DNA of 23,913 nt from assembly GCA_024276395.1 (NCBI GenBank), contig JAJRXH010000202.1, forward strand, positions 1 to 23,913, written 5' to 3'. This DNA comes from an archaeon (GTDB lineage Archaea; Asgardarchaeota; Heimdallarchaeia; Hodarchaeales; S146-22). The notes below the pieces were generated by a model. That model was given only the letters and a program-made list of their open reading frames with translations, searched no databases and was not told where the DNA came from. Both the position numbers and the translations under genes were made by a program. Shown here in pieces: positions 1 through 23,613 of the stretch. Each line of letters starts with the position of its first letter. Position 1 is the first letter of the stretch.

Positions 1-3000
1 AGCAATACACGCATTCACAGATACACTTGACTTATAACTATACATTTCAAGTAATCACTCCAGCTGGACAGATACTCACCAAAACAATGCTTGTCTTCGT
101 CATTCCACACCAATGGAATCTCTATCTGACTTTAACTACACCACTAGTCGACAGAAATCCAGCTCTGAACATGACCACCATCTATAGAAATACCACCATC
201 CTTAGCTGGAACATAACGTTGATGTTAGATGGAAGCCCATTCTCTGGCAACGTGACTGTAGAACTAGACGGCACGATAATTGCAAGACTGGTCACAGACC
301 AAAACGGCAATGCTTCATTCTCTCACTGGTTTTCAGCCACGGATTCCATAAAAACTTACAATCTTACCATCTATCAAACAGAACGACCGTACGTGAAACA
401 CGTGGAATACATCAAAGTTCTCCAAGATTATAGTTTCAGCATTACTAATGGAAATATCCAAATTAATTCTTCTGTAATCGTGGTCAACGGCACCATTGCC
501 TTGCAAGTACAAATGCTCAGATATGACCCGAATGCTAGTAGTTTCACGAAATCGATAAATGCAACGTATTGGTACTACTACCAAAATGCCACTTTCACGA
601 GCACCAATATCACCATCATTACTAACGCCAATCTCACCTCACCTCTTACTTACTACCTAAACATCAGCACCCCAACCTTTAGCAATGGTACCTATACCTT
701 TTACGTGTTCGCTAACAGCTCAACTGGAATACTTATCGAGGATAATTTCACGGTCACTGTCTTTGCTGAAAACTATACACTTGAACCCAGACCCAGCATC
801 TTATCACCAATCACCATTGATTATGGGGATATTTTTACCCAAACCTTTACCTTAAAATACGAAAACGGCTCGGTTGTCCCTAACAAGATTGTTTTCTTTT
901 TCATCACGAATAAACTCAATTATAACGACATTTTCACGGCAACTACAGACTCACAAGGAAAGTTAACAGTCACGATTCCTACATCCACGCTACCTCAGGG
1001 AGGAAAATATTTCTTTCATCCATTCATCCAAAGATCCTTAAGTCAAGGAACATTTCGAACTTGGAACGGAACGGCACTCGTGTATGAATTACGGATTAGA
1101 CAGATTGTCTTACAGGCATCATTAAGCGATCTCATTACCAATAAAACCTTACCAATGACTCCTTCCCTTCCAGACATCCCACGAAACGTCACGGTTTTCC
1201 AAGTGAATTACCAAGTATCCATTACTAATTTATCATTGAACGAAGCATTTGAGACCCCCATTTTATGGATAAACGATACCACTGACACGAGATTGTCCAT
1301 TGCCATTAATTTAACCAAATCTGGATTGATCAACTCCACGATATTTAACACGTATTTAGATTCGCCATTAGGCAACCATCAACTAACTTTAGGTATCCAA
1401 GGTAGTAACGTAACTACCACCTTGCAATTTAACTTGGTAACTAAATTTAAAATCAAGTCAGCTGCTCTCAATGGAACGGCCAGTGGTTCTTTGACCATCA
1501 TTCAGGGTCAAATTCTCAATGCAACAGTTCGCGTGGTCGCCTTCAATGTAACTGCCGCAAACCAAACATATCTTGCCTCTGGCTCCACGCTAACGTTTAA
1601 TGATCTAATCAATAACAACACGCACTATACCATCACGGTTGAAGCAAATGGCACGGCCAAATTCACCATTGGATCAAATACGTTGAATGTAAGCATATTA
1701 AAAGGATATGGATCAAATAATTGGCTCATTCATCCAAGCTCATTCCCTCATGGAGTTTATAACGTTCTTCGGATGACATTCTCGTTAAAAAACCAGAATG
1801 ATTCCGTCACATCCTTTTTACTCTCATTAACCATTATCATCAAGGAACCCGTGGCGTTAAACATCACGAGCATCCCAAAAATCGTAAAATGGGGAGAATA
1901 TTGGTCCGTTAGTGGTCAAATCCACAATCTCATCACGAATCAGTCCGTTTATGATTCATCTTTCTGGCTCACTCTCCAAAGTTCGGATGGAAAGATCCAA
2001 AGTAGTGGTGTTCCTCAACTAGATGGCTCATTCAACCTAAGCGTGATAATTGACGACAACACGTCCGCCACGCGTAATTTCACCCTCATCCTAAACGTGA
2101 ATCCGACGATCTTTTCTAATCAGACTGCAATGTATCAATTTTCGGTAAATATCACCTTTGGTGCGTTACTACTTCCAGTACCTCAAACCCTCTCCGTGGT
2201 AACTGTAAAAGACACTGACTCGCAAAACATAACTTGGCAGTTACGATATACCCACAACAATTCAGTAATTTCTAACCAACTCATCACGTTACAAATCGTA
2301 CAGTTAAACAAAAATTATACCGCTCACACGGATCAAAATGGAACCGTAACCTTTACCATTCAATGGAATGTTTCTCTTGCTTATCGACAATACACGTTAA
2401 ATGCGATTTATTCTGGAAATGATAGCATTGGAATTCCTACTAGCACCAATAAATCAATAACAACCAGAGTTCAAGGACCCATCTACATCCATGGCGATTA
2501 CGTTGCTGCTTGGAACGGTAATAACTCTGCATATGTCTTGCGAGGACAAAATCTGATGCTGTGGGGTCGAATTCTTTTTGCTAATGGGACCGTCGCTCCA
2601 TTAGGAACCATTGATGTAAACATCAATGTCATATCTAATGCAACAAGTGGTAATGATCTTATTGGAATAGTCAATGGAGCGTTTAATCTTTCAATTCGAC
2701 AGTGGCATTGGACTAACTACTCTTTCCTTGGTAATCTTGTCTTGAATGTTTCCCTACAAAAACTTACAGAGAACACGTTTCCATTCTACATTGCCAACGA
2801 TACGAGACTAAGCATCCTATGCGTGACAAGCATTTCCATTACGAGCGAAATCAATGGAATTACCACCGTTCAAGAAGGAAATATCAATAAAATAGCTAAT
2901 GGAAGTCAAATTAACTTTAGAATCACGATAAGCGAGAACAATCCACGATTAGCGTTACCAATTAACAAGGCAAGCTTGCTTACTGTCAATGCAACGTGGA

Positions 3001-6000
3001 ATGCTAGTACCTTGACCATTTCACGGATCAATTCCACTTGGAACACCCAAAATATGACGGTTTCCAATCAAACAAACATTTATTACGTGCTCCAAGTTAC
3101 CGTGACGTCAACCCTCATGCAAACATGTTACTTAAATGCCACGGTCACATACACGTTCATCACCAAGAATGCACTACAATTGATTCTCCTTAATGTTCCA
3201 GATAAAATTCAACCGGGTAATGCATTATCTTTTCAAGGAGAAATCCGTTATGGGGGTGCTAATGGTGAAATCTATGACCAAAATGCTGCTGTTCGAATTC
3301 AAATCAACGATTCAAGTAATAACATCATTTTTGAAAACACTTACATCATAAGCGGTGCCAATGGACTTTCCGTGTCGGTTTCTATCAGTGCAACTCTAAA
3401 ACCTGGAACCGTTCTAACAATCAAGGGAGAAATTGACCCTAAATCATTACCGTCAAGGTCAAACCTTGCCATCCAACCCACTCCCTTAGAATACGTGACA
3501 GTTGTTCAAAATCCCAATAGCATCACGATGAACATTCTAACAGCTGCCGTAACGACAAACGGTGGCATCAAGTATTATTATGAAAATACAACTCTAAATC
3601 TTAGCTTTTCTGTGACCTTCCCCTATTACACCATCAGCAATTTCAATGAAACCGACTGGGACTTCACTCTCAGCGTGACGGACGTGATGACAAGCATCAA
3701 CTTATATTCATCGACTCCATTTCACAATCTGAGTTTTCTTTACACGCCACCACCAGATAATGGCTACCTGAACATCACGTTAACAGTAAATTTTGCATAT
3801 GGTGCCACATCAACATCCTTCCAAGTCTTCATACTAGTAAAAATCATCACTAGTGCTACATTCGATCTTGTTAGCGTCTTTGATGCAACAGGCATCACGA
3901 AATTAGCAAAACAAGAAAATGCAGTAATCACGCGGAGAGATGCTGGAAATACCATTACCGTAACGCTAAGAACAAGTGATGATTTACTAAATGAATCACT
4001 ATCCACAGTTCCACTCAATTCAACGCCAATGCTTAGCCCAATCACCAACGAACTTACCTTAGGAAGTCTACCAGTTACTACTAACGCGGATGGCACGTTC
4101 TCGTTCAGCATCACGATAAATGCTAATACACCCTTGAACAATTATACCATCACCGTGGCTCTAAGTCATCAAAATTTCACGTTTACCTTTATCTTGGTCA
4201 TTAGGGCCGATATAGAGCTAAATGTCTCCCTCGGGAACAATCATGGTGAATTTTATCTAGATAGAAACAAATTGTACGTGAATATCAGTATCTTAGAACA
4301 ATCATTAGCCGTTGGAAACGTAACCGCTTACCTCGAACAGGGTTCGTGGAACTTGCAGTTAAAATTCTATCTAAATGGTCAAGAGATCATCAAAGACCGA
4401 ACATTAAGATCTAATGGTGATCTCTTTCCAGAATTATACGTGTATGACCTTTCCGTCCTTTCTCCTTCCCAAACAAGCGGCACGCTATCGGTGGAAGTGA
4501 ACCTTCTATGGGATCGTAGTCTGAATCGAAGCCTCAGCATGACACGAGAAATCATCGTCATCAAGGATGTCAACGCAACCTTATTATCCATGTCGCCAAT
4601 CACTAATGCAAAACTGTTAAATGACAATACCATTGCCATTAAACGCGCTGATAATCAGTATCTAATCTTAAATTTCCTAGCTAGCATCGCTGGAGCAACT
4701 CCAACAACTGGATTAAATAACATCAACATCACGATCAAATACCAAAATGTGCCAAAAGTTATTGATTTTAACACTTATCATCGAAATACTGACGTTGATG
4801 GAAAATTTAGCATCTCCATCCTCATGGATCGTACCGTTTCGCTTGGTAACCGATCATTAATCATTTATTGGCAATTAAATGCGACGCAAGCCCTTTTACT
4901 CTTCAACTATACCATCATGGTACAAAGTGATGTCTTCTACCAGTTTACTATCTTGCAAACAACTTTCTTGGAGACACAAATGGATGGCGAAGATTTACCA
5001 TCCACTGAGCTTGCACTCGTTATCCCCTATTCTGGAACGGATTCTTTGAACCTGTCGGAAACCCCATACATCAGATTTTTCTTGAGCACTACAGATGACA
5101 ATGGTTCAATCCTTACCACGAATCAAGGATATGGACGCTATCAGTTCACCATAACCTGGGAATTCACGAATGGAACAGCACCAATTTCCTATGAGATTGG
5201 CACTCTAATCACGGTTACCAACAATGGAGAATACATTCTAAAAATCAACGATCCTTTCCCAAGATCATCCGCAATCATTAAAATTAACGTTACTTTCATC
5301 CCAAGCAACGATTATCTGGGAATTTTATTGCCAAAAACCATTGAAATTACACGAATAACTTATTATGGCCAGTTAAAACTCACTTATCTAGGACGAACCG
5401 CTGCACCATTCGATCCCGCTGATTCTCCGATAAACGATTCAAACATGCAAATTGAGGCATTAGAACCTGTAATTTTCTGGTTCCAAGTGAGTGACCTAGG
5501 ATTTGGTAACCAGTCTCTTCCAGCCGATGTCATCTCTCCAGATTTTTTCCTTAACATCACTATTATAGACGGACAAACTGGACAAATCACGTATCAACGC
5601 CGAATAAAAGATTCATATCTAGATAACTCCATTAATGGGAAATTTTACTTAGATTACAGTGAAAGTGCCAGTGGAACCAGATTTCTGCTAGCGAACGTCA
5701 TTTATAATTTCACTGACAGAGGAAGCATTCATTCAATTTCCTCTACTTTCTTGAACATTAGTTTTACTCTCAAGCCAGCAAGCATTAACATTCTCAACGT
5801 GTTCACGGATGTGCAAACACAACAAGAAATTACCGTGGTCATCATGGGTAATACAGTGAACATCACTGCTTATGTATCACCATTAGATAAGTTCGCACAA
5901 CCCATTTCCTTCCCCATCGTATCTTCACCAGGTTCAGTTATTTTTCAATTTAACAGCACGGTTATTATTAGTAATTCACACGTTACCAGTGCCGCTGCTA

Positions 6001-8069
6001 CATCGATCAAGAAAATCTCCGCCGCCACGTATGCTTTCTCCCTTGTCGTTACCATTGAGAATCAAAGCGCACCTTACACACTAACCATAACCTCGGTCTT
6101 CAAGGTTTCAAAGGAGTTAGCATCCTATGGATTCAAGAACAAGACCAGCGATGCTACTTATTTATCAGTGTACAAGGAGCCAGAAATCAGTATTGGTAGT
6201 TCGTTCATCCTTCAGAAGCTTTCATTCATCTCAACTCAGACTTCAACACGTGGAAATTCTAACACGGTACGAGATACGAAAGATGATAACCTACAATTAC
6301 AAGCATCAGAGACCGTATTAACATCGAAATATGGAGAAGATTACACACTTTCTGGCTTGATTGCTGACAATGGTAATCCATTATCAGGATTTAGAATTGA
6401 AATTACCATTACGAATGCATCTGGACACATCATTCTGAAGAAAGTTACCTATTCAGACAACAACGGCATCTTTCAAGTCGATTTTCTGGTCACCAGAGAT
6501 GCATTCACGACTGAAGGTAATTATACCTTGACAATTAGATTAACTGATTTTGTTAGACCTCCAACGCTTACCGGAATCTTCCAAGTTTTCATTCCTACTT
6601 ACATTGATGTGTATTATACACCTGAATTCGTGACCAATGGTGATGTAGTGACAATTGTAGGGTATCTTAAAGATGACCTAGGAAATAACATCACCTCCTT
6701 GATTCAGCCTGGCGGCATGAGTCTTACAGGCGAGGGTACCATTGACATCAATAACGGACGTTTCATTTACCATTATCATATGCCCACGGAAAGTGCTGAC
6801 AACCAAGTGTTATCTTTCATCTTCAATGGTAACTTGGCTCTTTTCTTGGAGAAAAGCTCACTTGATCTCCCACTTAAAAAACTAACAAATCCAAAAATCG
6901 ATACCGTTTATGGTCCAATATCAATGGTTATCGGACAATCTTCTCAAATAAACGTGCAGATCTCTACTTACGTGCTCGACACCACGACAACTGCATTAAC
7001 TCAGAAAATTTTCTTGAGAAATAGGCCCGTGCAATTACTTCTTGAGAACTATACGCTCTGGCAAGGTCTCCTCAACGGAAGTGAATTCAGCTTGACCATC
7101 ATAATTACCTATCAAGGTGAACATGACTACCTCATAAAAGTCAATGGAGGTAATGTCACCAAATACACGTTGATACCGATAAACGGATCTAAATCTGAAT
7201 TTCAACCAATTGAATTCGTTTTGCGACTGTTAACAACGGAAGGTAATCCCATAAGCAAATTTACCAGAACCATTTCCATTGCACCCATCACTCTGTCAAT
7301 TGACGTCATTCCTTTACCAGCTAATCAACACGACACCTTCCCAACAATTGGTGCCGTGACTTTCACCTCTTTCATTCTGATGGTCCTATCATTCGTCAGT
7401 GCATTGACTTTAACAGTAGAGCCTTGGATTCGTCAACAATTAAAGCTTAGAAGACAGAAGAAACCCGTTTCAGAGCTCAAGAAAGAACTATCTGACCTCT
7501 TAGATAACCTAGTAGTTAGCGATTCAGAGACGGAAGATGAAGAAGGCGCTGATATCACCTCCTTACTTGAATGGGCAATCGAGGAAGAGCAGAAAGAAGC
7601 AACAATGGAAGGAATGGAATCATTAGAAGATTTCTCCTTCGAACTACCACCTATCTTCCAAGAATTACTAGATCTTCTGAAACTCAAGCAATATAAGGAA
7701 TTAGTTGCAAAAATATTAGATGAATCTTTACAATTGATGAGAGAACGTTATAACATCTATCGTCTCTCTGAAACAGAAACCATTCGAGAATGGGAGAAAC
7801 GAGCACTTAACACCCCCATTGGGCAGCAAAAGAGAACTCATGTTGCCCTCTTGTATGATGTTCTTTCCATTGGCAACTATTGGCCGCACCATAAGTGGAA
7901 TCGAACTGATGCAATCGATATTTTCCGAGCCTTTGTTACACTCTACCCAGACCTAGTAGATATACACTCTCTTCCAGAAGAACAAAGACATGGAATTTCC
8001 ATAATTGCCCGCGTAATCTTGAAAATGGGAAAAATTTCACAAAAAGATGAATTTGAGGAATATCTATGA
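1..8069 (+). CDS. Giant cell-surface beta-sandwich-repeat protein (more than 2,680 aa, 5'-partial), sequon-saturated ectodomain, one C-terminal TM helix, 216-aa cytoplasmic tail with DUF4129-like region
   Basis: The frame is open from the window edge: there is no stop between nt 3 and the TTG at 27, so the true N-terminus lies upstream. It ends at TGA 8067-8069. T(D/N)xxGxxxF strand motifs recur (VTDQNGNASF ~nt 291, TTDSQGKLTV ~943, HTDQNGTVTF ~2327, TTNADGTFSF ~4078, NTDVDGKFSI ~4787, YSDNNGIFQV ~6452), as in transthyretin/CarboxypepD_reg-like or Ig-like domains. I hand-counted 19 N-x-S/T sequons in the first ~250 aa versus 1 (NRT) in the last 216 aa. The hydrophobic helix IGAVTFTSFILMVLSFVSALTLTV (nt 7347-7418) is followed by a basic RRQKK stretch. 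The tail has an acidic stretch and RERYNIYRLSETETIREWEKRAL, which resembles the DUF4129 core. Confidence 0.9.
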   Translation, partial: QYTHSQIHLTYNYTFQVITPAGQILTKTMLVFVIPHQWNLYLTLTTPLVDRNPALNMTTIYRNTTILSWNITLMLDGSPFSGNVTVELDGTIIARLVTDQNGNASFSHWFSATDSIKTYNLTIYQTERPYVKHVEYIKVLQDYSFSITNGNIQINSSVIVVNGTIALQVQMLRYDPNASSFTKSINATYWYYYQNATFTSTNITIITNANLTSPLTYYLNISTPTFSNGTYTFYVFANSSTGILIEDNFTVTVFAENYTLEPRPSILSPITIDYGDIFTQTFTLKYENGSVVPNKIVFFFITNKLNYNDIFTATTDSQGKLTVTIPTSTLPQGGKYFFHPFIQRSLSQGTFRTWNGTALVYELRIRQIVLQASLSDLITNKTLPMTPSLPDIPRNVTVFQVNYQVSITNLSLNEAFETPILWINDTTDTRLSIAINLTKSGLINSTIFNTYLDSPLGNHQLTLGIQGSNVTTTLQFNLVTKFKIKSAALNGTASGSLTIIQGQILNATVRVVAFNVTAANQTYLASGSTLTFNDLINNNTHYTITVEANGTAKFTIGSNTLNVSILKGYGSNNWLIHPSSFPHGVYNVLRMTFSLKNQNDSVTSFLLSLTIIIKEPVALNITSIPKIVKWGEYWSVSGQIHNLITNQSVYDSSFWLTLQSSDGKIQSSGVPQLDGSFNLSVIIDDNTSATRNFTLILNVNPTIFSNQTAMYQFSVNITFGALLLPVPQTLSVVTVKDTDSQNITWQLRYTHNNSVISNQLITLQIVQLNKNYTAHTDQNGTVTFTIQWNVSLAYRQYTLNAIYSGNDSIGIPTSTNKSITTRVQGPIYIHGDYVAAWNGNNSAYVLRGQNLMLWGRILFANGTVAPLGTIDVNINVISNATSGNDLIGIVNGAFNLSIRQWHWTNYSFLGNLVLNVSLQKLTENTFPFYIANDTRLSILCVTSISITSEINGITTVQEGNINKIANGSQINFRITISENNPRLALPINKASLLTVNATWNASTLTISRINSTWNTQNMTVSNQTNIYYVLQVTVTSTLMQTCYLNATVTYTFITKNALQLILLNVPDKIQPGNALSFQGEIRYGGANGEIYDQNAAVRIQINDSSNNIIFENTYIISGANGLSVSVSISATLKPGTVLTIKGEIDPKSLPSRSNLAIQPTPLEYVTVVQNPNSITMNILTAAVTTNGGIKYYYENTTLNLSFSVTFPYYTISNFNETDWDFTLSVTDVMTSINLYSSTPFHNLSFLYTPPPDNGYLNITLTVNFAYGATSTSFQVFILVKIITSATFDLVSVFDATGITKLAKQENAVITRRDAGNTITVTLRTSDDLLNESLSTVPLNSTPMLSPITNELTLGSLPVTTNADGTFSFSITINANTPLNNYTITVALSHQNFTFTFILVIRADIELNVSLGNNHGEFYLDRNKLYVNISILEQSLAVGNVTAYLEQGSWNLQLKFYLNGQEIIKDRTLRSNGDLFPELYVYDLSVLSPSQTSGTLSVEVNLLWDRSLNRSLSMTREIIVIKDVNATLLSMSPITNAKLLNDNTIAIKRADNQYLILNFLASIAGATPTTGLNNINITIKYQNVPKVIDFNTYHRNTDVDGKFSISILMDRTVSLGNRSLIIYWQLNATQALLLFNYTIMVQSDVFYQFTILQTTFLETQMDGEDLPSTELALVIPYSGTDSLNLSETPYIRFFLSTTDDNGSILTTNQGYGRYQFTITWEFTNGTAPISYEIGTLITVTNNGEYILKINDPFPRSSAIIKINVTFIPSNDYLGILLPKTIEITRITYYGQLKLTYLGRTAAPFDPADSPINDSNMQIEALEPVIFWFQVSDLGFGNQSLPADVISPDFFLNITIIDGQTGQITYQRRIKDSYLDNSINGKFYLDYSESASGTRFLLANVIYNFTDRGSIHSISSTFLNISFTLKPASINILNVFTDVQTQQEITVVIMGNTVNITAYVSPLDKFAQPISFPIVSSPGSVIFQFNSTVIISNSHVTSAAATSIKKISAATYAFSLVVTIENQSAPYTLTITSVFKVSKELASYGFKNKTSDATYLSVYKEPEISIGSSFILQKLSFISTQTSTRGNSNTVRDTKDDNLQLQASETVLTSKYGEDYTLSGLIADNGNPLSGFRIEITITNASGHIILKKVTYSDNNGIFQVDFLVTRDAFTTEGNYTLTIRLTDFVRPPTLTGIFQVFIPTYIDVYYTPEFVTNGDVVTIVGYLKDDLGNNITSLIQPGGMSLTGEGTIDINNGRFIYHYHMPTESADNQVLSFIFNGNLALFLEKSSLDLPLKKLTNPKIDTVYGPISMVIGQSSQINVQISTYVLDTTTTALTQKIFLRNRPVQLLLENYTLWQGLLNGSEFSLTIIITYQGEHDYLIKVNGGNVTKYTLIPINGSKSEFQPIEFVLRLLTTEGNPISKFTRTISIAPITLSIDVIPLPANQHDTFPTIGAVTFTSFILMVLSFVSALTLTVEPWIRQQLKLRRQKKPVSELKKELSDLLDNLVVSDSETEDEEGADITSLLEWAIEEEQKEATMEGMESLEDFSFELPPIFQELLDLLKLKQYKELVAKILDESLQLMRERYNIYRLSETETIREWEKRALNTPIGQQKRTHVALLYDVLSIGNYWPHHKWNRTDAIDIFRAFVTLYPDLVDIHSLPEEQRHGISIIARVILKMGKISQKDEFEEYL

Positions 8070-9550
8070 GCGTGACACAAGAAAACTTGATCAAAACTGG
8101 CAAGATTGTCCAACATAAATTTCAACAAGTTATCAAAGGGGTTAGTCACTGGTTTGGAGCAAAAAGACTAACTTTAAAGTTCGCAATATTCATTTTACCT
8201 CTCATTTTAGTATTTGCCATCATAATCACGCCTTTTCCCAGTGGATCCACCTTGAATAACGGATGGGATGGCATCAGTCAAGTAGCAAAACACGTAAAAC
8301 AAAATGGTTATGAAATTGCACGGATTTACAATACTCCGATGGAACTGTCAACGTATAAAACTCCTGGAATCCTTATCATTCAACATATTGCGCGTTCATA
8401 TACCACTGACGAAATTCAACATCTCTTTCAATTAGTTCAAAATGGATGGAGCTTATTCATTGCAGAGGAAATCAATAGCGAAATCACTCGGGCCTTTAAC
8501 ATTGGTATTGAAGCATTCATGATTCGAGAAGAAAGTGCATTCGTCGATGACCCGATACAACCGTTACTAATACCTACGACTCAGATGAATCTCTCACAAT
8601 CAGTAAAAATCTTCTTATCTGGAGTTCGTCCCCTAATCTTATCAGATTTTCCGTGGCACTACGAACCAATCATCGCATCTACCGATCAGAGTTGGATTGA
8701 CATTGACCAAAATGGCGAATATGACCCAGAAATAGATGAAAGCGGTCCGTTCAACATTGGAATCCGTTTCAGCATTGGGCAAGGAAGAATCGTGTTTCTA
8801 AGTGACTTTACATGGCTTCAGAATCAAGTATTCTTTCAATTCGATAATGCACTGTTTTTTGATAAACTCATTTCTTGGCTGGGTGAGGCGATAACCAACA
8901 CGCTTGGAACCAAGCCAATCATCTATTTTGACGAATCGCACTTGAGTTGGACTACTCTCAAGCCTCAAACCATTCTCCATGCAATCTCACAGGCACAGTC
9001 ACTCATCCTTCAGAACCCACTCATGATAATAATCTACTTTGTTTTGATTGCACCTCTCATTTTCTATCAGTTCTCAACACTCGTTGATCGTTACATCGAA
9101 TTAAAAGCAAAGTTGCTGAAGGAGGTCAAAGGTGAGTCAACTTTCCATCAAAAAAGAGAAGAACTCAGAATGGCCATTCAGAATCCAGTAACCTTATTCG
9201 AGATAGTTTATTACAAAATTCTACTCAAATGGCTCAGTATGGACCCCTACTTCAATTTTAATTGGCTCCTTAGTGATCCAGCTCTAGAACGAGTGGAAAC
9301 ATTGATGTTTCTCGATCAATATCTAACACGGCTGTATGAGACAAGCAAGGAGGAATTCGAGAAGAATCCTGAGATTACTATTAGAAATCTTCAAGAATTG
9401 AAGAAGAAGACGCATAACCTTTTCAAATTTGCTTATAGACACGAAACAATAGGAAAAAATGCCGCTTCGATATCTGAATATGAAAACTCAAGTAAGTTCT
9501 GTTATCAACTTGCAATATTAGTTAGCAAGGAAAAGACAAACCTTTTATAA
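8066..9550 (+). CDS. DUF4350-like membrane protein (N-terminal TM, globular domain, second TM, helical cytoplasmic tail)
   Basis: The ATG overlaps the upstream stop (ATGA, nt 8066-8069). TM segments are FAIFILPLILVFAIIITPF and LMIIIYFVLIAPLIFYQF. The stretches GILIIQHIARSY...NGWSLFIAEE and GQGRIVFLSDFTWLQNQ resemble the DUF4350/GldG-type fold. A position immediately upstream of MoxR/DUF58 is typical for this family. The family call comes from memory of motifs only. Confidence 0.6.
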   Translation: MSVTQENLIKTGKIVQHKFQQVIKGVSHWFGAKRLTLKFAIFILPLILVFAIIITPFPSGSTLNNGWDGISQVAKHVKQNGYEIARIYNTPMELSTYKTPGILIIQHIARSYTTDEIQHLFQLVQNGWSLFIAEEINSEITRAFNIGIEAFMIREESAFVDDPIQPLLIPTTQMNLSQSVKIFLSGVRPLILSDFPWHYEPIIASTDQSWIDIDQNGEYDPEIDESGPFNIGIRFSIGQGRIVFLSDFTWLQNQVFFQFDNALFFDKLISWLGEAITNTLGTKPIIYFDESHLSWTTLKPQTILHAISQAQSLILQNPLMIIIYFVLIAPLIFYQFSTLVDRYIELKAKLLKEVKGESTFHQKREELRMAIQNPVTLFEIVYYKILLKWLSMDPYFNFNWLLSDPALERVETLMFLDQYLTRLYETSKEEFEKNPEITIRNLQELKKKTHNLFKFAYRHETIGKNAASISEYENSSKFCYQLAILVSKEKTNLL

Positions 9551-9619
9551 AAGGGATGTGGCTTTGCATCCGAAGTATGATCATGACGTGAAAAACAAAT
9601 TGAAAGAAGGTGTAAAAGA

Positions 9620-10633
9620 ATGAAAGAAGACGATCATTCCGTCGAAAATTTTGCACGATATGTCCAGGGGTTTTCTACCGAGATTTTAGGAGAAGTATCC
9701 AAAATCATTGTAGGAAAAAATGACATTCTTGAATTACTATTGGTCGCACTACTGGCTAACGGACACGTGCTTCTCGAAGGAGTACCTGGCGTAGCAAAAA
9801 CATTCATGGCACGGACGTTTGCTGGAGTCATGGGATTAGATTTCAAGCGAGTTCAGTTTACCCCAGATCTTCTTCCTAGCGACATCGTCGGTTCCATGAT
9901 TTATAATCAGAAAGAAGGAAAGTTTCAATTCAATCCCGGACCCATTTTTACAAACATCCTACTTGCTGATGAAATCAACAGAGCCCCTCCAAAGACGCAA
10001 TCTGCCCTCTTAGAAGCCATGGCTGAAAGAAGTGTTTCCGTAGAAGGTATCACGCACAAGCTTGACCGCCCGTTCACTGTATTTGCCACACAAAACCCTG
10101 TTGAACAGGAAGGAACTTACATCCTCCCAGAAGCACAATTAGATCGGTTCTTATTCAAGTTAAATGTCACGTACCCAGAAAAGACCGAAGATATTGAAAT
10201 TCTCAATCGCAAGCTAGGATTAAAGGACATTGATGAAATTAAAGTCGATGTCAAAGCTAATAAGGAACAAATCCGCGAAATACAAGATAACATCATCAAC
10301 ATTTATGTGGATCAAAGCATTCTTGAATACATTGCAGAACTTGTCAACAAGGCACGAAAGCATCCATACGTACAATTCGGTGCCTCACCACGCGCTTCCA
10401 TTGCGTTGATGATAGCAAGCCGTCCCCTCGCAGCAATGAAGGGAAGAGCTTACGTGGAACCCGATGACATCAAGGCTCTCTACAAGCCGATTCTCAATCA
10501 TCGTCTCGCCTTAACTCCAGAAGCTGAACTGGCCGGTTATACCTCAGAACAAATTCTAGATGAAATCATCAAAACTACGGAAGTACCCTATTTCGATCCA
10601 AATGAATTACCGGCATTACAACAAGCAGCCTGA
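9620..10633 (+). CDS. moxR: MoxR-family AAA+ ATPase (AAA_3 type)
   Basis: Walker A is GVPGVAKT (nt 9779-9802) and Walker B is ILLADEINRAPPKTQSALLEAM. Sensor-1 is VFATQNP, the ASPRAS arginine region is present, and the 337-aa length is typical. An AAGGTG Shine-Dalgarno sits about 7 nt upstream of the ATG. Confidence 0.93.
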   Translation: MKEDDHSVENFARYVQGFSTEILGEVSKIIVGKNDILELLLVALLANGHVLLEGVPGVAKTFMARTFAGVMGLDFKRVQFTPDLLPSDIVGSMIYNQKEGKFQFNPGPIFTNILLADEINRAPPKTQSALLEAMAERSVSVEGITHKLDRPFTVFATQNPVEQEGTYILPEAQLDRFLFKLNVTYPEKTEDIEILNRKLGLKDIDEIKVDVKANKEQIREIQDNIINIYVDQSILEYIAELVNKARKHPYVQFGASPRASIALMIASRPLAAMKGRAYVEPDDIKALYKPILNHRLALTPEAELAGYTSEQILDEIIKTTEVPYFDPNELPALQQAA

Positions 10634-10677
10634 ACAAAAACCAATGAGAATACCTGAAAGAGTGATTTCTAACCGAA

Positions 10678-12150
10678 ATGACAACCGGGGAAACATACAT
10701 GTCCTCAATTGACGATTTATTCGAAGAAATAGAAGAAGTCATCTCAATTCCGACAAGGAAAGCAAAAAGAAAAAAAATAATAGAATATAATCCAGAAGAT
10801 TTCATTTCACACCTAAGTCTCACGAGACGAGGAATGCTTATCACCATGGTCATCATCATTGACTTCGGACTCTACCTTTCCACCTCCCTCCCTTTTTTCG
10901 GTATCATCCTCATCATTTTTTCCGTCTTGTTTGCTATTGACTATTACTTATTCGTCAAAAATCCACTAGAAAATCTTCTCATCAAGCGACACATCGATCG
11001 AGCTTTGATGTTCGAAGGAGATTACAGCCTCGTGGAAGTTGAGGTCACCAACACGCATCCTACCAAGCCTATTGGTCTTCTAGAGGTAGAAGAGTATTAT
11101 CAGCCAGAAATCAAAGTCTTAACCACGAAGGAAAAACTAACCAAAAGCATGGCATTAGGACCAAAAGAATCTAATTACTTGAGGTATCTCTTTAAAATTG
11201 AACAAATGGGAAAGTACATCATCGGACCAATCAAGATGACTATAAAGGACTTTCTAGGTCTTTTTTCAGTCAACGTGATCGCACCTATTTTCGATGATGT
11301 CATCATCTTTCCTAGAATCGAAGACGCACAACGAATGTTCCAAGTTGCACAACGAAGAAAGTTAGGAAGATTTTTCGACATATTTCGACAAAAAGAAATC
11401 GGTTCTGGGTTAGACTTCTTTGGATTACGTGAATACGAACGAACTGATGATCATCGTGCTATTGACTGGAAAGCCTCTGCTAAAAGAAACATGGATCCTT
11501 TGATGGTACGGATTTATGAAACAGTCAATCCTTTAAACATTCTCATTGCATTAGACGCTGGAAAAAGCATGCTAGTGAGACTTGATAATGGAAAAACTAA
11601 ATATGAGGCAGTTCTCCCCATAGTAGCTTTTCTCATCCTGCTAGGACTATCCACGCGTGACAACGTGGGACTAGCCATCTTCGATTCAGAGGTAACTGCA
11701 TTCTTGAAACCAGCAAACCAACGAAAGGTCTTCTTTGACGCATTAAGACTGTTTGCAATGAGCAACAAAGGTAACAAGACTAGTTATCGACAATTAGCAA
11801 ATTACATCGTTGCTGGGGTAAGAGAACGAACTCTGGTCATCATCGTGACAGACTTGGAAGGAGATGTGGAAGAATTACATGAATGCATCCGAATTTTGAG
11901 GCTAAAAAAGTTTCCCGTTCTATTATTGTATCTAAAAAATGAAGAACTCGAATTTGATGTGCCCTTATCATCATTTGAGGACAAAATTTTCCTAGAAACC
12001 TATCTCGCTCATCGTGCTGCTGATATCATCCGAGAAGTAAGGAAAAAAGGAGTATCCACGATGACACTGAGACGTGAAGATTTCGAGAAACTGACCTTCC
12101 CGGTTACGCTTGAAAGATGGATTTCGTTGGTATCTCAAGCAAGGAGGTAA
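10678..12150 (+). CDS. DUF58 family protein (two N-terminal TM helices plus vWA-like domain), the usual MoxR partner
   Basis: The diagnostic DUF58 motif DFFGLREYERTDDHRAIDWKASAKRNMDPLMVRIYE is present. It is followed by the vWA-like strand LNILIALDAGKSM, a degenerate MIDAS (DxGxS). The N-terminal hydrophobic hairpin is MLITMVIIIDFGLYL / FFGIILIIFSVLFAIDYYLF. An alternative start is the ATG at 10699. Confidence 0.88.
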   Translation: MTTGETYMSSIDDLFEEIEEVISIPTRKAKRKKIIEYNPEDFISHLSLTRRGMLITMVIIIDFGLYLSTSLPFFGIILIIFSVLFAIDYYLFVKNPLENLLIKRHIDRALMFEGDYSLVEVEVTNTHPTKPIGLLEVEEYYQPEIKVLTTKEKLTKSMALGPKESNYLRYLFKIEQMGKYIIGPIKMTIKDFLGLFSVNVIAPIFDDVIIFPRIEDAQRMFQVAQRRKLGRFFDIFRQKEIGSGLDFFGLREYERTDDHRAIDWKASAKRNMDPLMVRIYETVNPLNILIALDAGKSMLVRLDNGKTKYEAVLPIVAFLILLGLSTRDNVGLAIFDSEVTAFLKPANQRKVFFDALRLFAMSNKGNKTSYRQLANYIVAGVRERTLVIIVTDLEGDVEELHECIRILRLKKFPVLLLYLKNEELEFDVPLSSFEDKIFLETYLAHRAADIIREVRKKGVSTMTLRREDFEKLTFPVTLERWISLVSQARR

Positions 12151-12153
12151 GAA

Positions 12154-13950
12154 ATGTTGATGACTATTAAGAAAACAGCAGGATATCGTCCAGCTAGCCG
12201 CAAATTATCTGAGCTACCCTTGTATTTTGAAAGATTACTACCTTTCACGGGAATTTTGAGAGTTGCTTTCATTGATCTGATGATCCTAAGCATGCTCGGC
12301 ATCTTCATTTTCTTCGATTATGCTTCTTTAATAGTTCGAATCACTCGTGGATTAATTCGTCGTGATCTCATTCTTAGGTATTTTTCGTTGAAGGATCAGG
12401 AAATCTTATTAATTCTACTTCTAGTAATTCTATACAATATTAGTAACATTTTTTGGATATTGAAGCCTAAAAAGATTCCGTTTGGTGAAACTTACATTCT
12501 TTTTTCGTTTATTTTCATCATTCTATTCAATGATGGCATCTTGGTACTTCTCAATGCGGACCAATTCCTCCATTACACCCTAGAACACGCACCAATAGAT
12601 TGGATACTATTAAGTTTTCTCATAGGTCTTACTTTTTTCACGATCTGGTTCGAACGTTACGTTAGGAAAAACAGACCGAAGAATATTTTTGATCTTGATC
12701 CGAATAGCATCGTCGAAACACTCAATTTCTTGATTTTTCTTCTCTTTACCTTGTTTCCCTTATTCATATTGCTCTTTCATCCTTTTTACAATCCAAAAGG
12801 TACCATTGTTTTGATAGATATGACCATGAACCTTTTGATTTCTCTTGATCCTTTAGATATCATGGGCACTCTAGATCAATGGTTCTACATTCTTCTAGAT
12901 GGATGGAAAGTTCTCCTCCTACTGGGTACTTACATCATTACCTTTTATCTAATGTTTCGTGCTACTAAGCAGCACGTGCTATCCAAGTTGGGTATGACCA
13001 TTCAAAAAAAGAAAAAAGTTCTTTCAACACGCCAATTCATTCGCGATCAGAAATACAAGCTAGTGGGGCTTGCACTCGTGACGGGATCTCACACGATAAA
13101 AGATCCTTATAGTAGTATTTTATGGATTTCACTTCCTCTCATTTCATTGTTCCTCATTTACAAGGATGAACTAAATCGTTTTCAACTATTTGTACTCACG
13201 ACCATCTTAGCTAGTATCTTTGTAAGTCGATGGATTCTTACCACCAACCTAGATACTGGTTACTATAATTTCTCAATTTTTAGCGTTTCCCTGTTTATTT
13301 CAATAATTGGGCTATTCATCACGTTAGTCTTCATCAGAAGTGGATATTTTGTTAGTATTGGCCTATTTGCAATTGCCATCCTCATTACCTATACCTTTTG
13401 GGACACCTATGAATATCTTTTCATTGCAGCCTTGCTTATCATTTTAGGAATTTTTTGGCTCCAACAACTTCAAAACATCGTCATTCCCTCACAAAAACTT
13501 TGTAACTCAGGAAAAGAGGCAAGAAGTCTTCTAGAGAATGAAGAAATCTTTTGGAGTGGAATACAAGAACGATTTTCATTGTCAGATGACTTGATGAATA
13601 GAATTCAATCCTATGTTTACTCTACACTCCAAAATGATCAAGAAAAAGTTCTCGAAATCATTTATGAGCCAGAAAAACCCTATAATGCAGTCATTTTCAC
13701 GGAACAAACCTTTTATAAGGCATTCCAGCTTGCAATTTCCATTTTAGCACCTCTTTTCGTATTGCCTTTAATCTTAATTTACATTCCCATTCCCTTCTTG
13801 GGACTTTATCATTCATCATCAGCCGGAAATTTCGCCGTTATAGTAATTTTATCGCTATACTTACTATCATTTGTTTTGATTTGGCTTCCTCCCATCCCCA
13901 TTCCCAAGTTTAAGGAAATGGAACTAGAATACAGGAGGTTTAAGCAATAG
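12154..13950 (+). CDS. Polytopic integral membrane protein (598 aa, 10 or more predicted TM helices, one soluble insert near residues 450-530), unknown family
   Basis: A strong AGGAGGT Shine-Dalgarno lies inside the end of the DUF58 gene, 6 nt before the ATG, with a 3-nt intergenic gap. The protein has long runs of hydrophobic segments. It occupies the slot where bacterial MoxR/DUF58 operons often carry a transglutaminase-like membrane protein, but I see no GxC...H...D transglutaminase core and the protein has only one Cys. Confidence 0.8.
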   Translation: MLMTIKKTAGYRPASRKLSELPLYFERLLPFTGILRVAFIDLMILSMLGIFIFFDYASLIVRITRGLIRRDLILRYFSLKDQEILLILLLVILYNISNIFWILKPKKIPFGETYILFSFIFIILFNDGILVLLNADQFLHYTLEHAPIDWILLSFLIGLTFFTIWFERYVRKNRPKNIFDLDPNSIVETLNFLIFLLFTLFPLFILLFHPFYNPKGTIVLIDMTMNLLISLDPLDIMGTLDQWFYILLDGWKVLLLLGTYIITFYLMFRATKQHVLSKLGMTIQKKKKVLSTRQFIRDQKYKLVGLALVTGSHTIKDPYSSILWISLPLISLFLIYKDELNRFQLFVLTTILASIFVSRWILTTNLDTGYYNFSIFSVSLFISIIGLFITLVFIRSGYFVSIGLFAIAILITYTFWDTYEYLFIAALLIILGIFWLQQLQNIVIPSQKLCNSGKEARSLLENEEIFWSGIQERFSLSDDLMNRIQSYVYSTLQNDQEKVLEIIYEPEKPYNAVIFTEQTFYKAFQLAISILAPLFVLPLILIYIPIPFLGLYHSSSAGNFAVIVILSLYLLSFVLIWLPPIPIPKFKEMELEYRRFKQ

Positions 13951-14102: not shown

Positions 14103-16691
14103 ATGGTCAAAGAACGGACAGATAATCAACAAAAAATCATCAAAACGGAAAATGATGAGTTTTCCATCCAAATTACAGTAGGTAAAACGTTTAGGGATCC
14201 TAATACAGGCTTAAATATCGTACTCTGTCCCAAGTGTTTTAACAAGATGTCGTTGTTCCTATGGCAAGGAACAAAAAGATGCTTGAGTTGTGGTCAAGGA
14301 ATTGGAAAAATTGAAGAACTAGAAATTAACTACACGCAACCACAAGTAGGTACCATAATTGAAAATGAATTGCTACGTTCCCAATGGGTAGAGTGCCCGG
14401 TCTGTGGATATAATAACACGCTAACTGCCATTGAAACAAATAAGATATGTTCTTCGTGCTCTGTCATCATTGGAAGCCTTCTCAACCCATCTACTGGTGA
14501 ACTCATCACGCTTGACATCGAAGAGATACTCATTGAGTACGAAAATAAATTTCAGGATGAGGAGAAAACCAGTAATTTACCGTTGCTCCAAATCAGTAAT
14601 GACGAAAAAATACTCCAAGATAGTTTGGCAGAAGGACTATTAGGGTTCTGGGAGGAAAGATGGCAAGTTAAATGCCTGTATTGTGGGTACATGAATGATG
14701 CGTCTTTGGTTAACAATTTCACTAATTTCAAGTGTGAACATTGCTTGCAACCAATTAAATCCCTCAAGTTCGACGAGAAGAGCCCAATCATGAACATTGA
14801 ATTAACTCCCATTGAATGTCCTCAATGCTCATTGGTGTATGAAAATAAAGAGAAATTACTAGAACTCATCGAACAAGAACTCACTTGCCAATGTGAATTC
14901 TCATTATTTGAGTATCTGCGTGATCCCGTCAAGGAAAAGGAATTTTATTCGAGAATGGTAGAATTACAAGTTAAATCCATGGAAGAAATTGAGTCAGATA
15001 GCTCAGAGAGAAAAGATGAAGAAAAATCAAACAAGCGCTTGTGTCCTTCGTGTTTCTCTCTCTATGATCTTGATGTCTTCGAATGCCCCACCTGTGATCT
15101 TTATTTAGATCCTGAAATGGCCAAGGCAGAAGAGCTAGATCCTTACGCCAAAGATTGGGCTTATCCATATACCGTTGATGAATTAGAAAAACTCATTGAA
15201 ATCCCGCCGTATGTGGCACGGAAGATTTATTGCGCAACTTGTGACGCTTACCATGAAAAATACAAGCTTCTCGCGGATAACGTGTTTTCATGTCCCCTTG
15301 ATCTTACTGATCTCACAAAACACAAGAGTTATTGTCAAAATTGCTCAATACAGTATCCCACTAATTACAATTTCTGCATGGAATGCGGGAAACAACTTGA
15401 AATCTTAGAAGTCGAAGTGTACATACCGCCACGGCTAAAAGAAACCACAGCTCCACCCACACCAGAACACGAGCCCAGTCCAATGACGATAAGAATTTTT
15501 TGTCTTGATTGCCAAGAAGAACACGAATATGACCTTGTACCACGATATTGCAAGAAATGTGGAGGGAAAATCGAGAAGAGTATGCATTTTTGTCCCCAAT
15601 GTCAAGTTTATTATCCGGTAACCTACAAGTTCTGTCGAATATGTGGCAAAGAACTAACAGAAAAAGTTCTTCCACAAGCAGATCGAATTACCATTACCGA
15701 AAAAGCCGCGATTTATTGTCATCACTGTCGAAAAAGTCAAACCTATACTTTTGTCCCAGCCGCTTGTTACAATTGTTTCATGCCGTTAGAAGTGAATGAA
15801 CTAAGATATTGTCAAAAATGCAAGATTAATTACCCACGTTTCTATAAATACTGCCAAGAATGTGGAAAACCACTCTCCTTCTCTAGAATTTCCCTACCAA
15901 AGCCATCAAAGTTAAAGAGCGTCCCCATTTATTGTAGTCCATGCCAAGAAACATATTTCTATCAGCATCCAGCAAAATATTGCAAGAAATGTGGACAATA
16001 CAACCGATTACAACCGTTGAGACGATGCCCACAATGTTTAGCCATTCAATCTCCTAATTTTAAATATTGCAAGAATTGTAAAGCGACGACAATAACTTGG
16101 ATTCCAAACCCCTTTGAAGTCAACCCGTCTCTATTAGAGGCATTCACTAAAATTGAACTGGAGAGTACACAACAAACTTCAATGGAAGAACTACAAACAA
16201 TAGAGCATCAAATTCCTCCAACCACCTCTCAACAAATAGAAGTTCCACGACTTACTCCTAGTAGTAGCTCATCTGCTTCAGCAATTCCAATCACTCAAGT
16301 TGACAAAAACCAATCTAAAAAACAAAAGATCGAAGCACTCCCAAGGGATGTTAAGAGTGATGACCAAAAAATCACTGAAAAAGGATTGATTGAAGAACAA
16401 GTAAAGCAATTTTTGGTAGATTATTTGAGAAAAAACAAATGGAAGTTAATCGATCCCGCCAAAATAGGCTTCAAAGTTGATATCATTGCTTCCAAAAGGA
16501 AAAAATTAATCGGCATTCAAGTCTCTAGCAATCCTACTACGGCGATGATGGATGAGCTGCTTTTCACGGGTTTTCCGGGAAAGTGGGCAATCTTTGTATT
16601 AAATAATGATGATGGGCAAGATCTTGGAAGAAATACCTTCCACGTGAAAACGTTGGACGCCTTGAGAAAGATCATCGATTCACTCGTGTAA
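14103..16691 (+). CDS. Multi-zinc-ribbon protein (about 13 CxxC...CxxC units) with Ser/Pro-rich linker and a C-terminal ~100-aa restriction-endonuclease-fold-like domain
   Basis: Cys pairs run from C42 (nt 14226) to C659 (nt 16079). Eleven are complete Cys4 units and two are degenerate (CPQC...CQC and CATC...C). Units such as FCPQCQVYYPVTYKFCRICGKEL, YCQNCSIQYPTNYNFCMECGKQL and YCQKCKINYPRFYKYCQECGKPL match the zinc_ribbon_2/DZR pattern. The start is uncertain: there is no Shine-Dalgarno before ATG 14103, and the frame stays open upstream to nt 13944 (see findings). Confidence 0.85.
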   Translation: MVKERTDNQQKIIKTENDEFSIQITVGKTFRDPNTGLNIVLCPKCFNKMSLFLWQGTKRCLSCGQGIGKIEELEINYTQPQVGTIIENELLRSQWVECPVCGYNNTLTAIETNKICSSCSVIIGSLLNPSTGELITLDIEEILIEYENKFQDEEKTSNLPLLQISNDEKILQDSLAEGLLGFWEERWQVKCLYCGYMNDASLVNNFTNFKCEHCLQPIKSLKFDEKSPIMNIELTPIECPQCSLVYENKEKLLELIEQELTCQCEFSLFEYLRDPVKEKEFYSRMVELQVKSMEEIESDSSERKDEEKSNKRLCPSCFSLYDLDVFECPTCDLYLDPEMAKAEELDPYAKDWAYPYTVDELEKLIEIPPYVARKIYCATCDAYHEKYKLLADNVFSCPLDLTDLTKHKSYCQNCSIQYPTNYNFCMECGKQLEILEVEVYIPPRLKETTAPPTPEHEPSPMTIRIFCLDCQEEHEYDLVPRYCKKCGGKIEKSMHFCPQCQVYYPVTYKFCRICGKELTEKVLPQADRITITEKAAIYCHHCRKSQTYTFVPAACYNCFMPLEVNELRYCQKCKINYPRFYKYCQECGKPLSFSRISLPKPSKLKSVPIYCSPCQETYFYQHPAKYCKKCGQYNRLQPLRRCPQCLAIQSPNFKYCKNCKATTITWIPNPFEVNPSLLEAFTKIELESTQQTSMEELQTIEHQIPPTTSQQIEVPRLTPSSSSSASAIPITQVDKNQSKKQKIEALPRDVKSDDQKITEKGLIEEQVKQFLVDYLRKNKWKLIDPAKIGFKVDIIASKRKKLIGIQVSSNPTTAMMDELLFTGFPGKWAIFVLNNDDGQDLGRNTFHVKTLDALRKIIDSLV
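15231..16079 (+). repeat. Protein-level tandem array: four units, each pairing a type-A zinc ribbon (I(Y/F)CxxC...YCKKCG) with a type-B zinc ribbon ((Y/F)CxxCxxxYPxx(Y/F)K(Y/F)CxxCGKxL)
   Basis: First Cys positions of the A units are residues 377, 467, 539 and 611. First Cys positions of the B units are 411, 497, 570 and 642. Units 2-4 are spaced 72-73 residues apart (about 216 nt). The DNA copies are diverged, so this is not a recent duplication. Confidence 0.75.
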
Positions 16692-18381: not shown

Positions 18382-18821
18382 CCATGGGAAACGTGATAAA
18401 TTTAAATTTGCATTCCTACTTTCAAGATGTCTCTAATAAATGGCTGGAACTACTTAACACGTTGAGCTTGCAAGTACCTAACCACCCACAACTAAATCAC
18501 CTGATGACTCTTTATGAAGATCTCGAACAAATTAAGTTCGAGGTTCAGTATCTTCCATCACCCTCATCATCACTCCTAAAAAGACAAAAAAATATGTATG
18601 AAGTCCTCATGCTATTAAGTGCCGTGTTATGTCAAAAAATCCTTAGGATCATCGTGAACTTACATGACCAAGTAAGTCTTCATCAAAAATACCTAGAAGT
18701 GGAAGAAATTGAAGAAGTTACAAGACTCATAAGACAGGTAGAGCAAGTAAATCGAATGCTCCTAAGACTCCTCCAAGGTGAAGATCTCAACACAACCCTC
18801 ATCAAGAAAATGGAACAATAA
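18378..18821 (+). CDS. Small all-helical/coiled-coil cytoplasmic protein (147 aa), unknown family, possibly an ESCRT-associated adaptor
   Basis: The ATG overlaps the upstream stop (ATGA at 18378-18381) and is preceded by AGGAGAT. Heptad-like Leu/Glu/Gln-rich sequence is present (EVEEIEEVTRLIRQVEQVNRMLLRLLQ). The TAA at 18819-18821 is in the same frame as the next gene. No family was recognised by eye. Confidence 0.65.
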   Translation: MTMGNVINLNLHSYFQDVSNKWLELLNTLSLQVPNHPQLNHLMTLYEDLEQIKFEVQYLPSPSSSLLKRQKNMYEVLMLLSAVLCQKILRIIVNLHDQVSLHQKYLEVEEIEEVTRLIRQVEQVNRMLLRLLQGEDLNTTLIKKMEQ

Positions 18822-23233: not shown

Positions 23234-23613
23234 TTTTCCACCTCTTAAGATTCTCTCAAAATGAACGATCAAAATCTAAAGTTTGCTTGACGTGTAGAAC
23301 CAAGGATTGAATCTATCTTGTTAACACTGATGCTGAATCATTCATCTTATTGTACCATTATTTCTTGGACTTTATATGACTTGTGACGAAGACGATCCAC
23401 GCGCAAGCTTGCCTGCTTGTTAGATGGGAAATTGAATGGCCATGGCAATCGACCTTCCTTCTATAACGAGTAAAAGGCAATAATGGAAAGGTAAAAATAA
23501 ACTCGTGATCTAGTAAATTTTCACGGCTTTTTCTCACGACTGAAAGTCATGCAAAAGAAGTAAAGTCTCACGTGCAATGGAATGATTGAGAGGACGTTCA
23601 ATCACTCAAGGTG
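23234..23613. promoter_or_regulatory. Divergent intergenic region between the methyltransferase (-) and the partial membrane gene (+), with candidate operator-like motifs
   Basis: At 380 nt this is the longest non-coding stretch in the window. TCTCACG occurs twice (23532-23538 and 23566-23572), TCACG once more at 23521-23525, and inverted CGTGA at 23504-23508. There is a CACGTG palindrome at 23569-23574 and a 7-bp inverted repeat TGATTGA(N8)TCAATCA at 23583-23604. A/T-rich TATA-like stretches include CTTTATATGA ~23369-23378 and AAAAATAAA ~23493-23501. I cannot place a transcription start. Confidence 0.3.

Follow-up and report, generated by a model that had tools for sequence, protein, structure and literature searches.

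The MoxR-vWA-transglutaminase-like (TGL) operon is strictly conserved and occurs in bacteria and archaea (Zhang and Aravind, PMC3495828). In P. aeruginosa, the operon PA2875-2872 encodes TgpA, which contains a periplasmic transglutaminase domain (PMC3507681). In archaea, DUF4350-MoxR-vWA operons are found together with membrane-anchored immunoglobulin-like (Ig-like) surface proteins (Makarova et al. 2015, PMC5898192). Here we describe a locus related to both systems on contig JAJRXH010000202.1 of an archaeon of the Hodarchaeales (positions 1-23,913, forward strand; this whole stretch of 23,913 nucleotides (nt) is called the window hereafter). The locus consists of a gene for a giant protein, which is followed by genes for a DUF4350 protein, a MoxR-family ATPase, a DUF58 protein, and a polytopic membrane protein.

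The fusion of an extracytoplasmic domain, a transmembrane (TM) helix, and DUF4129 in a protein encoded beside MoxR and DUF58 is already known. In Ralstonia, the gene for a 'DUF3488 and DUF4129 domain-containing transglutaminase family protein' forms one row with those for MoxR and DUF58, and a Halorubrum transglutaminase protein adjoining DUF58 carries DUF4129 at its C-terminus. In addition, PF11992, PF01841, and PF13559 are combined in many database proteins. These examples rule out the idea that a DUF4129 fusion is unprecedented. An earlier note, made from the sequence of the window, had regarded DUF4129 as a separate small membrane protein; this applies to the small stand-alone proteins present in haloarchaea, but the fusion is the common TgpA form.

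We lean towards reading the giant protein as a membrane-anchored, heavily N-glycosylated surface protein that represents an enlarged TgpA-type subunit of the MoxR-vWA(DUF58)-transglutaminase-like system. Because its full-length relatives carry an N-terminal Transglut_core domain, it is better described as an expanded TgpA-like protein than as a surface protein into which a module of the operon was captured. The unusual properties of this protein family are its size, the inferred Ig-like array, the load of N-glycosylation sequons, and the combination with DUF4350, to which the relatives add a single-helix N-terminus and a head that lacks the catalytic Cys and His. The features of the giant gene and its product are as follows.

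nt 3-8069, plus strand: open reading frame (ORF) of the giant protein, frame 3, stop-free, open at the 5' end, TGA at 8067-8069.
nt 3-7346, plus strand: ectodomain, 2,448 amino acids (aa) up to the helix, rich in Asn, Ser, Thr, and Ile, with 2 Cys.
nt 6285-6593, plus strand: MG2-like all-beta sandwich (aa 2095-2197), from AF2 (pLDDT 70-86), Pfam MG2, and Foldseek.
nt 7347-7418, plus strand: single TM helix IGAVTFTSFILMVLSFVSALTLTV, from a hydropathy scan and flanking charge.
nt 7419-8066, plus strand: cytoplasmic tail of 216 aa, comprising a basic juxtamembrane stretch, an acidic linker, and a conserved helical domain.
nt 7704-7937, plus strand: DUF4129-like core (VAKILDES...ETETIREWEKRAL...NYWPHHKWNRTDAIDIFRAFV), from hhalign of the tail family.
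nt 8066-8069, plus strand: ATGA overlap between the stop of the giant gene and the start of the DUF4350 gene, read from the sequence.

The visible part of the giant protein comprises 2,688 aa (about 300 kDa), and its N-terminus is located outside the window. Lys and Arg are absent from the 20 aa preceding the TM helix, whereas six are found in the 20 aa that follow it (EPWIRQQLKLRRQKKPVSEL). According to the positive-inside rule, this distribution places the tail in the cytoplasm. The conserved helical domain of the tail starts at the invariant ELPPIF motif (nt 7641-7658), as defined by alignments with the relatives. The position of the TM helix and the length of the tail, which contains a single sequon, are as the earlier note had given them, and the outside/inside topology that it proposed holds on the flanking charge and on the distribution of sequons.

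This distribution is highly asymmetric, with 103 N-x-S/T sequons (x not Pro) over the first 2,445 aa of the visible ectodomain. Full shuffling of the ectodomain yields an expectation of 46.1±5.8 sequons, and shuffling inside blocks of 20-100 aa gives the same expectation, with a z of about 10. Control patterns are far rarer in the ectodomain ([ST]-x-N 45, N-[ST] 28, N-x-x-[ST] 35). Moreover, 46% of the ectodomain Asn residues lie inside sequons, compared with 21% for Gln or Asp placed in the same pattern. The full and block shuffles, together with the offset and reverse motifs, exclude composition as the source of the excess, so that the shuffling control suggested in the earlier note comes out in favor of a real enrichment. 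The enrichment is confined to the extracellular part of the giant protein, as expected of an archaeal N-glycoprotein. Selection for N-glycosylation sites on the outside domain is thus well supported, and the giant protein itself is presumably N-glycosylated. No gene for the oligosaccharyltransferase AglB is present within the window.

The sequons are most crowded at the distal end. The earlier note had counted 19 in the first ~250 aa, in agreement with the 19 we find within 257 aa, but the density that it gave, one per 13-14 residues, is valid for the distal ~250 aa only (about one per 14), and the mean spacing over the whole ectodomain is one per 23.7 aa. From the distal end to the membrane, successive stretches of 250 aa contain 18, 11, 15, 16, 9, 8, 9, 8, 5, and 4 sequons, and the share of Asn located in sequons drops from 0.61 to 0.36 (window 3-7337). 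A comparable drop close to the membrane is observed in P0003, a relative described below. A high sequon load is typical for archaeal surface proteins, and the S-layer proteins of thermoacidophiles contain one sequon per 30-40 residues (PMC11284389). Within the window, the giant protein has 3.9 sequons per 100 aa, compared with 0-0.7 in 11 of the 12 other proteins (z about 0) and 2.3 (13 sequons, z 2.6) in the twelfth, a second surface protein encoded at 16705-18381. No enrichment is seen in the DUF4350 protein (2 sequons in 494 aa, z -0.6), although one of its domains is predicted to lie outside. Sequon loading thus singles out the giant protein and this second, MG2-containing protein, and is not a property of every exposed domain.

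Relatives of the giant protein are few. A phmmer search with the TM helix and tail against 1.84 billion representative proteins matched three proteins, two of which, P0002 (823 aa, an apparent fragment) and P0003 (2,385 aa), can be aligned along the full length of the tail, and the third shares only a short motif. The best-scoring phmmer match to the tail is P0001, a protein of 178 aa in which a ~56-aa unit occurs three times in tandem and contains FWPHRKWRKTDIFDI, similar to YWPHHKWNRTDAIDIF of the window (nt 7872-7919). Scans of genome and metagenome contigs revealed four further loci with relatives, and word-index searches for homologues, queried with the tail or with an alignment of three tails, returned no match. 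The relatives amount to six loci, all archaeal or metagenomic, one of them in a metagenome-assembled genome of an 'uncultured archaeon'. In BLASTP, the window tail matches the tails of P0003 (E 1e-9) and of the full-length protein of locus L004 (E 1.5e-16). The window tail has the invariant motifs ELP-x-IF, K-x-Y, and ET-[IV]-RE-[FW] in common with the relatives, and nowhere in the giant protein is conservation across the family higher than in the tail.

P0003 and the L004 protein reveal the complete layout of the family. Both begin with an N-terminal helix and a Transglut_core domain (PF01841; 1.5e-11 in P0003 and 5e-12 in L004). Ig-like domains take up about 1,800 aa behind these, and a TM helix with the DUF4129-like tail completes the protein. 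The families matched in their Ig-like stalks are Big_3_5, CarboxypepD_reg, and MG2, and both proteins equal the window protein in sequon richness (z 14).

The giant gene is linked to four genes that follow it on the same strand.

nt 8066-9550, plus strand: DUF4350 (GldG-like) protein, 494 aa (Pfam DUF4350 3.3e-11; 29% identity, E 2e-29 to its L004 counterpart).
nt 9620-10633, plus strand: MoxR-family AAA+ ATPase, 337 aa, no TM helix (AAA_3 1.2e-64, AAA_lid_2 2e-22; 58% identity to L004).
nt 10678-12150, plus strand: DUF58 (vWA-like) protein, 490 aa (DUF58 4e-17, VWA_2 weak; 37% identity to L004).
nt 12154-13950, plus strand: polytopic membrane protein encoded by the fifth gene, 598 aa, about 10 hydrophobic segments.

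The ATGA coupling of the giant gene to a DUF4350-like neighbor, which had been pointed out in the earlier note, is borne out, and the four following genes are separated by gaps of 69, 44, and 3 nt. A TM scan indicates that the DUF4350 protein is built of a TM helix, an outside domain of ~250 aa, a second TM helix, and a cytoplasmic C-terminus of ~150 aa. The same scan finds an N-terminal hydrophobic hairpin in the DUF58 protein (aa 53-94), from which a cytoplasmic location of the DUF58 domain is predicted. Sequence comparison identifies the DUF4350, MoxR, and DUF58 genes of the window as orthologues of those in the relatives' loci. Neither Pfam nor NCBIfam assigns the fifth-gene protein of the window to a family. 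In the relatives, this position is taken by a polytopic protein of 488 aa (L004 14622-16088; L002 11514-12980), which likewise has no match in either database, and no similarity is detectable between the two. Either they are analogues by position, or they may have diverged to an extreme degree.

The gene order is conserved. The complete series of giant, DUF4350, MoxR, DUF58, and polytopic protein is found in L002-L004, and the order in the incomplete loci L001, L005, and L016 agrees as far as each of them reaches. The giant gene directly precedes DUF4350 in all six related loci, five of which continue into MoxR, and the two reading frames overlap by 8-26 nt at the junction in the relatives. 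With DUF4350, MoxR, and vWA-type genes beside a membrane-anchored protein with Ig-like evidence, the window fits the arCOG01314-type setting. Makarova et al. predicted a novel secretion system for operons that combine arCOG01314, MoxR, and vWA with Ig-like proteins of membrane or S-layer-like type; DUF4350 is GldG-like (PMC5898192). An alternative in line with this prediction is that DUF4350-MoxR-DUF58 forms a secretion-like machine for export or assembly, the giant protein being its cargo and the tail a sorting or retention signal. The conserved synteny and gene overlap are in agreement with such a machine. However, the high conservation of the tail relative to the rest of the giant protein speaks for a role beyond that of a signal, and no channel partner for MoxR/DUF58 is predicted except the polytopic fifth gene, which is not conserved. 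A secretion function of the module has so far only been predicted. We regard this alternative as a live one, but as clearly less likely than the TgpA-type reading.

In the enlarged TgpA-type subunit that we favor, the ectodomain would form a very long extracellular stalk, which in the full-length relatives bears the transglutaminase-like head. Pfam matches of Ig/MG type to the ectodomain are weak and include MG2 (7.8e-7, aa 2120-2178), MG4 (1.1e-5, aa 751-788), Big_1, and PITM1-3; MG4 alone (26.0 bits) clears its curated cut-off. The AF2 model spanned aa 2085-2445 and is confident only for aa ~2095-2197, the MG2-like module. In a Foldseek search against the PDB, this module has its top matches in the MG arrays of complement C3/alpha-2-macroglobulin and in the tandem Ig repeats of giant adhesins (6xi3, 5irb), and it is colinear with aa 1899-1999 of P0003 (E 7e-5). 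A PDB sequence search with the whole giant protein returned no match. These observations weakly indicate a beta-sandwich nature of the stalk, and an array of divergent Ig/MG-like beta-sandwich domains is a plausible model for it.

The evidence that relates the tail to DUF4129 comes from the family. DUF4129 is the top Pfam family for all five of the relatives' tails that were scanned, with a best E of 3e-5, and the full model of 69 positions is covered. A custom profile, built from 50 DUF4129 sequences that came from annotated records of haloarchaea and Ralstonia or from homologues of these, matches the relatives' tails with E values from 1e-5 to 1.5e-3. In hhalign, the tail family aligns with this 50-sequence profile over 73 columns, including the whole core (P 2.5e-4, score 30.6), and the register is that of the Pfam DUF4129 alignments. 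In one reversed and 30 column-shuffled controls, P stays at 0.22 or above and the score at 12.7 or below, and P is 7.7e-4 when the window protein is left out of the family. The tail is C-terminal, directly follows the TM helix, and lies on the cytoplasmic side. This placement is identical to that in haloarchaeal DUF4129 proteins (L008, L011, L012) and in the TgpA-type protein of Ralstonia (L013), and the genes for a MoxR ATPase and DUF58 adjoin the giant gene. Homology of the tail to DUF4129 is thereby weakly indicated, and through the transitive link provided by its homologues we consider it quite probable that the window tail is a divergent DUF4129 domain. The segment that the earlier note had called DUF4129-like (nt ~7716-7975) largely coincides with the stretch aligned by the family profile (nt 7704-7937), but the window tail alone does not reach significance.

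A number of results weigh against the proposed relationship. The earlier note had suggested a significant DUF4129 match of the window tail as a test, and the tail fails it: a Pfam scan gives no DUF4129 match even at E<=10, the custom profile aligns at the correct place with a non-significant E of 0.062, and hhalign with the window tail alone yields P 0.29. Wherever bit scores were reported, even the relatives' tails stay below the gathering score of PF13559 (24.8 bits), with 20.9 bits for P0002, 14.9 for L004, and 12.5 for P0003, and the hhalign probability for the tail family is only 43%. The canonical RYG motif of DUF4129 reads NYW in the window tail, and the AF2 model of the tail from a three-sequence alignment is all-helical and of low confidence (pLDDT 54). 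As to the extracellular part, no transglutaminase domain is found in the 2,688 visible aa of the window protein, whose N-terminus lies beyond the window, and P0003 and the L004 protein have no match to PF11992 (TgpA_N/DUF3488) and start with a single hydrophobic helix instead. Only one domain of the presumed beta-sandwich stalk was modelled confidently. The beta-sandwich repeats described in the earlier note stand as far as this one all-beta domain and a few weak Ig/MG matches are concerned, but there are no sequence repeats, since self-BLAST, Tandem Repeats Finder, and iterative HMM search detect none in the giant protein. Finally, the literature searched contains no experiment that connects DUF4129 with MoxR or DUF58, whatever the organism.

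Several of these points would also suit a giant adhesin or cell-coat glycoprotein that is independent of the downstream genes, with co-transcription reflecting shared envelope expression and the DUF4129 resemblance arising by chance. Taken by itself, the window tail does not match DUF4129, bacterial giant-adhesin repeats (6xi3, 5irb) are among the top Foldseek matches, and a high sequon load is common on archaeal surface proteins in general (PMC11284389). Such independence is hard to combine with the position of the gene, which lies directly ahead of DUF4350 in six of six loci and runs on into MoxR in five, with overlapping stops and starts. Moreover, DUF4129 is the top Pfam family, in the same register, for every relative's tail scanned, the hhalign controls exclude a compositional artefact, and the relatives carry the transglutaminase core expected of a TgpA-type protein. 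We therefore hold an independent adhesin to be improbable.

The transglutaminase-like head of the relatives is unlikely to be an enzyme. In P0003 (head at aa 257-358; gene at L002 435-7592) and in the L004 protein (gene at 3524-10696), Leu and Tyr occupy the positions of the catalytic Cys and His, and Asp alone is retained from the TgpA-type triad. Because of these replacements, the head is probably an inactive binding domain, and an active peptidase or transglutaminase role is ruled out for it. A membrane-proximal system for ATP-dependent degradation, in which a transglutaminase-like peptidase acts on substrates unfolded by MoxR, as Zhang and Aravind proposed for MoxR-vWA-TGL (YebA/TgpA) operons (PMC3495828), is very hard to reconcile with this locus, because the TGL domain of the relatives sits at the far extracellular end of a ~2,000-aa stalk, not near MoxR, is not predicted to be active, and is missing from the visible part of the window protein.

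If the giant protein is an enlarged TgpA-type subunit, its tail would share the membrane side with the MoxR ATPase, the vWA-like domain of DUF58, and the C-terminus of the DUF4350 protein, and the operon products could form a single membrane complex. In such a complex, the ATPase/vWA pair may act on the giant protein through the conserved tail and thereby govern its assembly, positioning, spacing, remodelling, or turnover, and the DUF4350 protein may contact the giant protein on both sides of the membrane. The tail may thus contact MoxR/DUF58, and the giant protein may serve as client or anchor of this machinery, as the earlier note had suggested, or as its regulator; for the MoxR-DUF58-DUF4350 module, the literature searched offers predictions. 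A bolder version, which is speculative and which we rate below the two alternatives of export and of an independent adhesin, is a surface fibre controlled from inside the cell, in which the cytoplasmic MoxR AAA+/vWA pair grips the DUF4129-like tail of a glycoprotein stalk ~100 nm in length. If true, the pair would control insertion, spacing, tension, or shedding of the stalk. The stalks would then provide a non-crystalline glycoprotein coat for Asgard archaea, which reportedly have no S-layer, and would represent a prokaryotic analogue of adhesion receptors regulated by a cytoplasmic tail.

A TgpA-type subunit enlarged to a probable surface glycoprotein of 300 kDa or more points to the assembly or maintenance of surface proteins, rather than cytoplasmic proteolysis, as the likely output of the system. 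The giant protein is a concrete candidate for the surface material of S-layer-less Asgard archaea, and would be a rich target for glycoproteomics. These considerations are drawn from sequence and from the six related loci found.

The remaining part of the window contains further genes. The zinc-ribbon gene at 14103-16691 (plus strand) is placed between the MoxR operon and the gene for the second surface protein, and encodes a soluble protein of 862 aa composed mostly of zinc ribbons (DZR 8.5e-20 in 7 stretches, DZR_2 in 8 stretches). The second surface protein (16705-18381, plus strand; 558 aa) has an N-terminal signal/anchor helix, an MG2 match (4.3e-11), and a C-terminal hydrophobic segment, and its gene ends in a 4-nt overlap between the stop and the ATG of the ORF that follows (18378). 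At 18834-19388 (plus strand) lies the gene for a Vps22/SNF8-like ESCRT-II protein of 184 aa (Pfam EAP30 3.9e-9; phmmer against human SNF8 3cuq_A 2e-6), a gene that is suggestive of an Asgard origin. It is preceded by an ORF of 147 aa (18378-18821) and followed by the gene for a Band7/SPFH protein (19434-20084), and this is not a canonical ESCRT cluster. Downstream on the minus strand, a gene at 21261-22409 encodes a protein of 382 aa that consists almost entirely of leucine-rich repeats (LRR_8 9e-32), and is accompanied by a gene for a class I S-adenosylmethionine methyltransferase (22466-23272).

Among known systems, TgpA (PA2873) resembles the window protein in that a single polypeptide leads from an extracytoplasmic domain through a TM helix to a DUF4129 or DUF4129-like domain at the cytoplasmic C-terminus. 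Both are encoded in an operon with a MoxR ATPase and DUF58, and the relatives of the window protein carry Transglut_core. However, TgpA is ~680 aa long, starts with a TgpA_N domain of five helices, and has an active Cys-His-Asp triad, whereas the window protein exceeds 2,688 aa and its relatives possess one N-terminal helix and a TGL head without the catalytic Cys and His. In addition, the giant family differs from TgpA by an inserted Ig-like stalk of ~2,000 aa and an extreme sequon load, and the window operon contains added genes for DUF4350 and the polytopic protein.

The arCOG01314 (DUF4350)-MoxR-vWA neighborhoods have the core of DUF4350, MoxR, and vWA/DUF58 beside Ig-like membrane proteins in common with the window (PMC5898192). 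Their Ig-like partners are small proteins with 2-4 TM helices (pfam07760 type), and giant single-pass proteins with a transglutaminase head or a DUF4129 tail are not listed among them. The stand-alone DUF4129 proteins of haloarchaea (Haloferax mediterranei WP_004056480, Halomarina, Halomontanus) share the C-terminal DUF4129 following a TM helix and the proximity to DUF58 and MoxR, but they have 248-323 aa, strong Pfam scores of 35-55 bits, and no large ectodomain.

The PFNA cluster of Bifidobacterium (Pkb2 kinase, FN3 protein, MoxR ATPase, DUF58, and transglutaminase) likewise brings together an Ig-like protein, a transglutaminase, MoxR, and DUF58 (PMC12067865, PMC8430577). There, the FN3 protein and the transglutaminase are separate proteins of modest size, and the cluster is bacterial and shows neither DUF4350 nor an N-glycosylation signature. 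Archaeal S-layer proteins such as Sulfolobus SlaA and giant Ig-repeat adhesins such as BAP and MpIBP are sequon-dense or built as Ig arrays, like the giant protein. Compared with them, the giant protein has denser sequons (one per 24 residues, distally one per 14) and domains that are not sequence repeats, and it is distinguished by its anchor, a C-terminal TM helix with a conserved domain on the cytoplasmic side that is linked to an AAA+ operon.

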